From a virus, in IMG/VR virus record IMGVR_UViG_3300042888_002402: 64,000 nucleotides of DNA. One strand, given 5' to 3'. This document shows positions 24,936 through 26,985 of this stretch, piece after piece (positions within the stretch are counted from its first letter, which is position 1; each line of letters begins with the position of its first letter). Under the pieces are notes generated by a model. That model had not been told where the DNA came from. It saw only the letters and a list, made by a program, of their open reading frames with translations, and made no database searches. A program made the position numbers and the translations under genes.

Positions 24936-25967
24936 TCACGCATTCTTCATGCAAGTTGTCTCTGCCATGAGTCTCCATTTTGCTGGAAAGCTCTTGACTA
25001 AATCTGCAATCTTCAGCGCCATACGCAGGCTCATCTCACGCAGACGAGTTTGATTGGTGTTCATAAAGTCAATGATGTCGTCTTGCTGGTACTCGTTAAA
25101 GTCATAGTCCTGGAACAACACACCATCTTTGGCAATTTGTTTGATACGCAAGATTTTGTCACGCATAGTGTCCAATGTCAAGTCTAGATAGTGGCAACGA
25201 CTTTGCAATGCATCCAGGTGGTCACGCAATTTTTGCGACTTCATTTGATCAAACTTCAAGTTGGTAATAAAGATAACGCTGCCTTTGAACTCAAAACTGT
25301 CTGGGATGCCTTCGCGGCGCAGAGTGCTAGACTCCGACAACCAACTAATTTTACGTTTCTTACCCGAGTCCAAGGCACCCTTGAGCAAGTTAAGAGCAAC
25401 ATCGTCCAGCAAAATGCTGTCACAGTCATCAAACACTAGAACACAATTGGCGTCAGAATATTTGTACAGAGTTTGGTACAAGCCAATTGGGGTTGCACTG
25501 CCTTTGACAACTTCGGCACGTAGGCGCTTGCCGGCAATCTTGTCAAATAAACAGGCCTTTTCAACTTCTTGCTCTACACCAAAGCTCTTGCCAACGCCGG
25601 GCGGGCCCGACACAATCATGGCACGGATGTCACCAGCAGTAGCCGCTTTGGTCATCTCTGTTAGAATTTCAAAGCGTTCTCTAATACGAGTCATTGCTTC
25701 TTCTTCTGTTTCGATTGCCTTAGTAGGCGTTTTAGATGTGACAAGCTCTAGCATGCTCTCTCCTTGAGTTACGAACTCATAGTCCTGAGTTCCGGTTACG
25801 TTAACACGAATAGTTTCTGGCATGTTTGGAAATGTGCCACCATTTTTGACTTTGACAAAACTGTTTTTACCAGTTGTTGTAATTTGCTCTACTAGCTCAA
25901 AACACATGCCTGCAACACTTTTGTTGCGGTAAGTTCCTGACAAAACACGAATATGACTGTTAGACAT
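24936..25967 (-). CDS. P-loop/AAA-like ATPase
   Basis: GPPGVGKS, LVFDDCD, IFITN, ALQSR; SD AAAGGGG. Confidence 0.85.
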   Translation of the reverse strand: MSNSHIRVLSGTYRNKSVAGMCFELVEQITTTGKNSFVKVKNGGTFPNMPETIRVNVTGTQDYEFVTQGESMLELVTSKTPTKAIETEEEAMTRIRERFEILTEMTKAATAGDIRAMIVSGPPGVGKSFGVEQEVEKACLFDKIAGKRLRAEVVKGSATPIGLYQTLYKYSDANCVLVFDDCDSILLDDVALNLLKGALDSGKKRKISWLSESSTLRREGIPDSFEFKGSVIFITNLKFDQMKSQKLRDHLDALQSRCHYLDLTLDTMRDKILRIKQIAKDGVLFQDYDFNEYQQDDIIDFMNTNQTRLREMSLRMALKIADLVKSFPAKWRLMAETTCMKNA

Positions 25968-25996: not shown

Positions 25997-26025
25997 ATTA
26001 TAACAAAATACGATTTTTGTGTCAA
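25997..26025 (-). promoter_or_regulatory. Perfect sigma70 promoter P1
   Basis: TTGACA-17-TATAAT. Confidence 0.9.
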
Positions 26026-26081
26026 ACTGCGGTGTTGTCTTTGTGCAACATTGCTTGATCTTGTTGTTTTTTACTGTTCAT
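26022..26081 (-). CDS. 19-aa leaderless micro-ORF (MNSKKQQDQAMLHKDNTAV)
   Basis: ATG 6 nt after the P2 -10; TGA lies in the P1 -35 box. Confidence 0.35.
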   Translation of the reverse strand: MNSKKQQDQAMLHKDNTAV

Positions 26082-26087
26082 GCTGTT

Positions 26088-26116
26088 ATTATAGCAAAAC
26101 GGCTATTTTTGGTCAA
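26088..26116 (-). promoter_or_regulatory. Sigma70 promoter P2
   Basis: TTGACC-17-TATAAT, extended -10 TG. Confidence 0.85.
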
Positions 26117-26256
26117 CCTTGCAGATCTTGCCCTTTGTGCTTGATGTTGCGTTTATACAACACTTGATTTTGCTGGGTTTTAGGACGAAAAGGCAAGTCG
26201 CGATCAAACAACACACGATGTGCTCTGGGTTGTGGGTTACGATTGGATGTTTTCAT
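26113..26256 (-). CDS. 47-aa basic protein, ArfA-like (not in ORF track)
   Basis: MKTSNRNPQPRAHRVLFDRDLPFRPKTQQNQVLYKRNIKHKGQDLQG; FR...N...YxRxxKH pattern. Confidence 0.55.
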   Translation of the reverse strand: MKTSNRNPQPRAHRVLFDRDLPFRPKTQQNQVLYKRNIKHKGQDLQG

Positions 26257-26301: not shown

Positions 26302-26327
26302 AAAAACCCTACAATTTGTAGGGTTTT
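26302..26327 (-). terminator. Intrinsic (probably bidirectional) terminator
   Basis: AAAACCCTACA-3-TGTAGGGTTTT. Confidence 0.8.
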
Positions 26328-26415: not shown

Positions 26416-26985
26416 TCAAGGCAGATATGGTCGCGATGAATCAGGATATGCAACTTGTCCAGGGCTGATGTTAAAATTACATGTAATATTGCTGCCAGCA
26501 GGAACTATCCAATGACATATTCCTTTAGATAAAAAGGGCTGGGTGACTCCGTCGATTGCAACATTACTACGTACATCCGGAGTTCCATCTGAATTGGTCG
26601 GGTAACCAACATAAGCGTTTTCAAATTCATGATGTGACGGGGTTCCTACATTTCCACAATCATCACCAAAGTTCCGACGGCACATCTCCTCGTGATCCTT
26701 TTGATAATTACTCTTGATGTCACCTAAAAGCACTCCGTGTCCGCCTGTTACAGTTATCTTCATTGGCAAGCTTCCTGCAAAATCAGTATGAATATCTGCA
26801 AGTGCAGCCGTTTCTGCTAACACAGTGTATTGGTAGTCATCAGCTACAGGCACTTGAACAATAGGAGCATCAACTGAAGGAACAATACCATTATAAATTG
26901 TGTTTCCATTTAGCTCAATATTGAGTGTAACGTTGGTTCCAAAGGCTGTGCCCATGAATCTAAGACTTCTATCTTCTGTTGCCAT
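26416..26985 (-). CDS. Hypothetical late protein
   Basis: SD AGGAG; late box 27005-27010. Confidence 0.7.
   Translation of the reverse strand: MATEDRSLRFMGTAFGTNVTLNIELNGNTIYNGIVPSVDAPIVQVPVADDYQYTVLAETAALADIHTDFAGSLPMKITVTGGHGVLLGDIKSNYQKDHEEMCRRNFGDDCGNVGTPSHHEFENAYVGYPTNSDGTPDVRSNVAIDGVTQPFLSKGICHWIVPAGSNITCNFNISPGQVAYPDSSRPYLP

Follow-up and report, generated by a model that had tools for sequence, protein, structure and literature searches.

A small basic peptide gene of an uncultured giant phage with family-level similarity to the ribosome-rescue factor ArfA

The 64,000-nucleotide stretch of viral DNA analysed here (hereafter the window; IMG/VR record IMGVR_UViG_3300042888_002402; 40% G+C) belongs to a large (giant) uncultured phage and encodes, on its minus strand, a basic peptide of 47 residues. 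At the level of its family, our comparisons support this peptide as a loop-less, tail-less, phage-borne and often leaderless relative of the ribosome-rescue factor ArfA. There is hardly any doubt that the open reading frame is a real gene, and on balance we favour the reading that its product acts as a constitutive, early rescue factor of the ArfA type that would depend on a release factor.

Results

A conserved coding sequence

The open reading frame (26113..26256, minus strand) runs from an ATG at 26256 to a TGA ending at 26113 and comprises 47 codons, specifying a DUF7230-related, ArfA-like peptide of 5.66 kDa with a pI of 11.4 (11 Lys/Arg and 3 Asp/Glu). The first-pass annotation had proposed an ArfA-like peptide at this position; the frame is present, and the string quoted there corresponds to residues 15-41. 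The DNA of the region found no match among 50,697 phage records. A word-indexed search for the peptide returned 18 close homologues of 48-54 residues with 55-94% identity, in which the R-A-H-R-V-L-F-D-R-D-L-P-F-R-P core and the later Y-x-R-x-x-K-H are invariant or nearly so, the core motif of the family being RAHRVLFDRDLPFRP and then Y-x-R-x-x-K-H. A profile of the close homologues recovered 146 clusters, all of 33-99 residues, at E<=1e-3 among 1.84 billion cluster representatives. Pairwise dN/dS among close relatives ranged from 0.09 to 0.48, and in the DNA alignment third positions vary within the frame while the promoter and the terminator stem are fixed. Because of the 18 homologues, the 146 clusters and this range of dN/dS, the frame must be regarded as more than a chance one.

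The frame is positioned between tandem promoters, its stop is simply the TGA within a TTGAC, and an adjacent 19-codon frame behind the second promoter shows no coding conservation, as would be expected of a chance ORF in a non-coding spacer or of a region acting as RNA. Such an explanation is nevertheless effectively refuted by the persistence of the protein across the clusters, by its invariant residues and synonymous-site variation, and by copies of the gene that were found without tandem promoters; an RNA element is further contradicted by the lack of any Rfam match and of any significant fold. All that Rfam offered for this region was a sub-threshold Phe_leader candidate (E 0.96), which was discarded.

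Promoters and a predicted leaderless start

Along the minus strand, a hairpin is followed by promoter P1, 9 nt, the peptide ORF, promoter P2, a 60-nt stretch, promoter P3, a Shine-Dalgarno leader and an AAA+ ATPase gene. The hairpin (26303..26327, minus strand), identified by folding, is followed by a U-run and resembles an intrinsic terminator closing the upstream unit, which contains a 189-aa gene (26416-26985). Its 11-bp stem has a folding energy of -13.4 kcal/mol (z -4.5; equalled by none of 200 shuffles), and the hairpin also occurs in loci L001, L002, L003 and L081, with a conserved stem and a variable loop. Promoter P1 (26266..26294, minus strand) is a near-consensus sigma-70 promoter with a -35 box TTGACC at 26294-26289, a 17-bp spacer and a -10 box TACAAT at 26271-26266. 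The second of the three tandem promoters, P2 (TTGACC-17-TATAAT; 26088..26116, minus strand), overlaps the stop codon of the peptide gene, and P3 (TTGACA-17-TATAAT; 25997..26025, minus strand) drives the AAA+ gene via an ordinary Shine-Dalgarno leader.

Only 9 nt separate the -10 box of P1 from the ATG, and no Shine-Dalgarno sequence lies there. From a -10 box ending so close to the start codon a transcript leader of 0-3 nt is predicted, which implies that the peptide mRNA would be leaderless. The arrangement of P1 is conserved in relatives of the peptide gene. Counting promoters with at least 10 of 12 consensus positions, we found one ending 6-9 nt before the ATG in 17 of 44 distinct family genes, in several divergent lineages. 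The remaining ORF starts of these loci had such a promoter in 13 of 820 cases; Fisher's test returned 3e-16, a value that is no clean probability since the loci are partly related. Other lineages of the family have an ordinary Shine-Dalgarno leader.

On leaderless mRNAs, initiation is carried out directly by 70S ribosomes, and we infer that such a start would suit a factor needed at the very onset of infection. The gene had been described at first pass as immediate-early, which is plausible given a terminator followed by a near-consensus promoter 9 nt before the ATG, although promoter quality is the sole basis of that label. In pelagiphage HTVC027P, gp30, which carries the Pfam ArfA domain, is highly expressed early according to the transcriptome (PMC12753301).

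The DNA around the gene has further features of its own. The stop codon of the peptide gene is a TGA lying within the -35 box TTGAC of the next promoter (window 26113-26118 and 26022-26025), and the same overlap of stop and -35 box is seen in an unrelated DUF7230 locus (L176:2653-2658); its occurrence at two unrelated loci suggests promoter-ORF-promoter cassettes packed end to end. The 19-codon frame behind P2 (26022-26081, minus strand) is not conserved as coding sequence, given that L001 has ATA for ATG and a 1-nt deletion. The stretch of about 60 nt that it spans (26022-26081) is conserved as DNA, including a small hairpin GTTGC ... GCAAC, and recurs in L002 and L081, which have an inserted 94-aa gene, downstream of a second copy of the promoter; the stretch may represent a conserved leader or a small RNA.

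Members of one clade (loci L109, L112, L113, L117, L137, L143, L145, L147, L156 and L162-L164) have no Shine-Dalgarno sequence and carry a conserved GTAAATA box that ends 7 nt before the ATG (approximately 14 to 8 nt before it). The box resembles the core of T4-type late promoters, and its conservation is ambiguous because the preceding gene has its stop codon within it. Should the box act as a promoter, the copies of this clade would likewise be leaderless, though expressed late.

The 3' end of the gene

The peptide ORF ends with an ordinary TGA after codon 47 and encodes no hydrophobic tail. No hairpin was found at or inside its 3' end, which folds no better than shuffles (z -1.15), and an arfA-style non-stop mRNA design was consequently rejected for this copy. 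With an ordinary stop, no tail and no 3' structure, the product is expected whenever the gene is transcribed, in agreement with the earlier proposal of a constitutive peptide that lacks the KGKGS loop and the regulatory tail, a three-residue gap being seen at GKG.

Structures at the 3' end were observed in two relatives with extra C-terminal residues. In L174:2625-2680, a hairpin of about 25 bp (-27.1 kcal/mol, z -2.9) takes in the final eleven codons together with the stop, which is in the loop. In L176:2598-2640, a Pfam-confirmed DUF7230 member, a 7-bp G+C-rich stem and a T-rich run are located inside the ORF, about nine codons before the stop; a simple terminator scan did not call this stem because its loop is too long. 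Both hairpins recall the non-stop mRNA design of arfA, and these two cases, which do not constitute a survey, fit the idea that some family members keep non-stop control and that this phage copy has lost it. A family member with a hydrophobic tail like that of ArfA is encoded at L171:2219-2395 (P0130), in a bacterial context beside Nramp, MarC and DUF2788 genes; the contig ends inside this ORF.

Similarity to ArfA

Searched singly, the peptide gave no match at E<=10 in Pfam, NCBIfam, the PDB or PHROGs, and it reaches neither the gathering threshold of Pfam ArfA (25.5 bits) nor that of DUF7230 (27 bits), for which the related G002 copy scores 13.7 bits. A tblastn search of the 50,697 phage records returned nothing, one further direct search only noise at E=3, and BLASTP against E. 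coli ArfA an E value of 0.46. The profile of the close subfamily (A1) found nothing in the PDB, and in hhalign this subfamily alone reached only 19% against ArfA, from which it follows that the connection to ArfA depends on more distant relatives. The Pfam ArfA model had no match in two related jumbo-phage records, and NCBIfam includes no model for the peptide family.

The link emerges with the family alignment (A2, 112 sequences). Its HMM, compared with 177,635 distinct PDB sequences, gave six matches at E<=10, all of them ArfA chains (best E 0.0055), in an alignment extending from F25 to approximately G49 with a single three-residue gap at G35-K36-G37 of KGKGS. When A2 was aligned by hhalign to 28 enterobacterial ArfAs, the probability was 90.3% (E 1.5e-6) over 38 columns, pairing phage residues 9-47 with ArfA 12-53; the real pair scored 34.3, compared with 9.5 for the reversed ArfA profile and 17.4 for the best of 60 column shuffles. 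Shuffled sequences likewise reached at most 7.6 bits, as against 19-29 bits for the real ones. The ArfA-likeness put forward at first pass, for which an HMM comparison had been proposed, therefore stands for the family profile, whereas no direct HMM test detects it in the single peptide. The E. coli ArfA string quoted at first pass is correct (translation of arfA, NC_000913.3), and the shared FR, N and Y-x-R-x-x-K-H as well as the absence of the GKG loop and the hydrophobic tail are all seen in the alignments.

Among the 112 relatives, 49 match DUF7230 (PF23876) at E<=10 (best E 1.8e-8) and another comparison, with Pfam ArfA, gives 8 matches, none of which reaches the threshold (best 20.3 bits), with 21 matching phrog_6310 and 20 matching phrog_2701. 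The ArfA of Pseudoalteromonas phage J2-1 (ATN93434.1, L169:383-535) scores 41.3 bits with Pfam ArfA (cut-off 25.5), 28.6 bits with DUF7230 (cut-off 27) and 29.4 bits on the A2 profile, its shuffles reaching at most 4.9. It combines an ArfA-type N-terminal half with a DUF7230-type C-terminal half lacking the GKG loop and, judged from its sequence, is a natural bridge between the families and the strongest single item for the ArfA link. Since J2-1 passes both thresholds, Pfam ArfA and DUF7230 overlap and probably belong together, and it is quite likely that the peptide family, DUF7230 and ArfA form one superfamily.

It might be argued that the likeness to ArfA is convergent or compositional and that we are dealing with a small basic protein of separate origin, for instance a nucleic-acid or RNA-polymerase binder. 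We judge this unlikely. The sequence is very short, with identities at only 10 of 38 aligned positions, it fails every direct search when used singly, and no ribosome or translation gene lies consistently nearby (tRNA genes occur at 4 of 47 loci and no neighbour is common across lineages), all of which would agree with a protein of that kind; the composition controls, however, fail to reproduce the similarity, whether the ArfA profile is reversed or shuffled or the sequences themselves are shuffled, and no other basic protein of the PDB is matched at E<=10. Moreover, J2-1 provides a continuous intermediate between the two Pfam models, and in some of the tailed relatives, as in arfA, a hairpin covers the 3' part of the ORF.

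Correspondence of residues and possible contact with RF2

The ten most conserved columns of the family, placed in the hhalign register, pair R11 (94%) with N14 of ArfA, H13 (90%) with I16, L16 (100%) with L19, F17 (92%) with L20, P22 (97%) with L24, F23 (91%) with F25, Y34 (88%) with Y39, R36 (100%) with R41, K39 (97%) with K44 and H40 (86%) with H45. Cryo-EM has placed ArfA residues 21-30 in the A site and residues 31-48 in the mRNA tunnel, which they fill; W319, in the switch loop of RF2, is bound by a hydrophobic patch made up of L19, L24 and F25, and ArfA cut at N47 is active while ArfA cut after M40 is dead (PMC5378476). In the alignment, the phage peptide spans every one of these ArfA segments. 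The residues of KGKGS are inessential for ArfA activity (PMC6299226).

The C-terminal tail of the family is long enough for the mRNA tunnel, the alignment extending to ArfA residue 53 with Y39, R41, K44 and H45 kept, and in this copy the tunnel tail is less basic than in ArfA (5 of 16 residues versus 9 of 18). Within the RF2-patch region, a half that is aligned by hhalign only, L16 corresponds to L19 and F23 to F25, but P22 takes the place of L24 and V15 that of A18. The larger Val15 thus stands at the position where a Thr substitution kills activation, the A18T variant of ArfA binding with no activation of RF2 (PMC5378476). ArfA has nothing equivalent to the first 10 residues or to the near-invariant R11 and H13, R-A-H replacing N-A-I of ArfA, and this N-terminal mismatch suggests that the RF2-activating minidomain, which in ArfA drives the opening of RF2, may be a different one here.

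These differences bear on the explanation that the peptide occupies the vacant mRNA tunnel or the decoding centre in the fashion of ArfA, with another outcome: it could be a competitive mimic of ArfA or SmpB that blocks host rescue or translation, it could park ribosomes, or it could recruit RF1 (cf. ArfT) or a phage protein. What the peptide has in common with ArfA are the tail motifs, whereas the N-terminal activating region differs (R-A-H for N-A-I and Val at A18); besides, ArfA A18T shows that RF2 can be bound without being activated (PMC5378476), and ArfT, which has a similar tail, uses RF1 or RF2 (PMC6299226). We nevertheless hold a different outcome to be improbable, in view of the hydrophobic residues aligned with the patch (L16, F17, P22 and F23), which are among the most conserved of the family and point to a conserved protein partner, not to mere occupation of the tunnel. 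A translation block by an early constitutive gene would also be costly to a phage that needs working ribosomes.

ArfA is disordered off the ribosome, and factors of its type lose activity once 3 or more mRNA nucleotides extend past the P site. A co-fold of the peptide with E. coli RF2, used as a stand-in for the release factor of the host, scored 0.41 against 0.00 for the best of three controls, and this score passes a mark that 58 of 80 solved complexes attain, as do 2 of 110 mismatched pairs; passes at 0.60 or less came from only 7 of those 80 and from both passing mismatches. At least 66% of contacts recur between runs, and the partner pLDDT is at least 51. The model gives weak support to a peptide-RF2 contact and, because ArfA-RF2 complexes have already been solved, its pass may reflect likeness or memory only.

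Comparison with known systems

ArfA (YhdL; Pfam PF03889; PDB 5MDV, 5MDW, 5H5U, 5U4I, 5MGP and 7OJ0) is found in E. coli and other proteobacteria. The phage product equals mature ArfA in size and is, like it, small and basic, and its family has a consensus F-[KR]-P-[KR]-V-E-K-[NS]-K-K ... Y-x-R-K-x-K-H that is collinear with ArfA F25-H45, while the hydrophobic L/F pair and the P-F of the family align with L19, L20, L24 and F25. Unlike ArfA, the peptide is sub-threshold in Pfam, a three-residue deletion removes GKG from KGKGS, the N-terminus M-K ... R-A-H stands in place of ArfA residues 1-14, and there is no hydrophobic C-terminal tail, in-frame hairpin or non-stop mRNA control; it is also phage-borne and has a leaderless promoter arrangement. 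Size and C-terminal motif are shared with DUF7230 (PF23876) and with the unannotated PHROGs 6310, 2701, 18092, 20887 and 37108, but neither the window peptide nor any near relative of it attains the cut-off of DUF7230. In the literature searched, DUF7230 is unmentioned and no experimental study of any DUF7230 member or of any phage ArfA was found.

Phage genes annotated as ArfA have been described in Citromicrobium phage RXM (gp10; PMC8953757) and in pelagiphage HTVC027P (gp30; PMC12753301). Phage J2-1 has an annotated copy as well, and tblastn added those of pf16, Arash and others. The phage ArfAs of J2-1, RXM, HTVC027P and pf16 resemble the window peptide in being phage-encoded, in their length of 50-60 residues and in their ordinary stop codons, and that of J2-1 also in having no GKG loop. 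In contrast, they keep an ArfA-type N-terminus and pass Pfam ArfA, and the window peptide does neither.

In Pseudomonas phage pf16, an unannotated ORF (L168:386-538, plus strand, corresponding to KU873925.1 131775-131927, minus strand) scores 72.2 bits with Pfam ArfA (cut-off 25.5); the record annotates instead a hypothetical protein, pf16_199, on the opposite strand and partly overlapping the ArfA ORF. In Salmonella phage Arash (OQ632216.1 57961-58074; H34), the feature named 'ribosomal protein L2' contains a stretch with 63% identity to residues 4-41 of E. coli ArfA and is probably a mis-annotated phage ArfA.

Other rescue factors are tiny and basic too. ArfT of Francisella and BrfA of Bacillus subtilis, which are independent factors, insert a positively charged tail into the vacant mRNA channel and bring in a release factor (PMC6299226, PMC6881298), ArfT accepting RF1 or RF2 despite a tail similar to that of ArfA (PMC6299226). 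No sequence relationship of the peptide to ArfT or BrfA was detected, and the two show that very different short peptides can perform rescue, with RF1 as well as RF2.

Genomic setting

Downstream of the peptide gene lies the AAA+ ATPase gene (24936..25967, minus strand; phrog_1250), which served as synteny anchor. Its best identity, 42%, is to PA5oct-type jumbo Pseudomonas phages, and its closest relatives are on IMG/VR contigs of up to 338 kb. The peptide gene adjoins the AAA+ gene in only 5 of the 80 loci that carry the latter, and for this reason the ATPase was rejected as a functional partner. In a 262-kb relative the peptide gene is located about 50 kb away from the AAA+ gene, a 338-kb, 97%-complete relative is without it, and one more distant family copy sits within a replication module. 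Copies of the family thus occur in both syntenic and non-syntenic contexts, and the peptide gene is an accessory, stand-alone module.

Clustering of neighbours across the family loci revealed no partner gene conserved between lineages, the recurrent neighbours coming from one clade together with an antisense shadow frame. No association of this subfamily with tRNA genes emerged, such genes being near only 4 of 47 loci. A tRNA-Met gene lies approximately 1.1-1.4 kb downstream of the family gene in L118, L128, L135 and L144, which represent two lineages only, and L144 has tRNA-Leu and tRNA-Arg genes shortly 3' of the family gene as well. When contigs were scanned with the close subfamily, a single match of 15 residues, in a Lachnospiraceae MAG, came up and was taken as chance.

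Discussion

The reading that we favour, that of an early ArfA-type rescue factor, would involve the following steps. Early in infection, the host RNA polymerase would transcribe the gene from the near-consensus sigma-70 promoter as a leaderless mRNA, which 70S ribosomes would translate directly. The C-terminal half of the peptide (approximately K26-K41, including Y34, R36, K39 and H40) would thread into the mRNA tunnel left empty in ribosomes that have stalled at the 3' ends of truncated messages, while L16, F17, P22 and F23 would present a surface like the L19/L24/F25 patch of ArfA. This hydrophobic surface would hold a release factor (RF2 in the case of ArfA) in its active form, so that the nascent chain would be released and the ribosome recycled. 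A normal stop codon and the absence of an internal hairpin suggest that the factor is made constitutively and not only under tmRNA saturation, and constitutive rescue would be of use to a phage that breaks down the mRNA of its host or encounters defences that cut mRNA.

A broader proposal, which we put forward tentatively and with more doubt than confidence, is that DUF7230 and its relatives, the present gene among them, are a large, mostly phage-borne branch of the ArfA superfamily devoted to constitutive, leaderless, immediate-early rescue that is independent of tmRNA control, possibly in hosts without ArfA. If this were true, ribosome rescue would be a common and unrecognised step of host takeover, or a counter to defences that cut mRNA.

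If the peptide does rescue ribosomes, then many phages, to judge from the 146 sequence clusters, would supply a release-factor-dependent rescue factor themselves, DUF7230 would cease to be a Pfam family of unknown function, and ArfA could dispense with both the KGKGS loop and the control linked to tmRNA. This would raise the testable question of whether phages need extra rescue on account of their own destruction of host mRNA or on account of the cutting of messages by defence nucleases. In addition, the recurrent leaderless arrangement may offer a small natural system for the production of a rescue factor under disturbed initiation.
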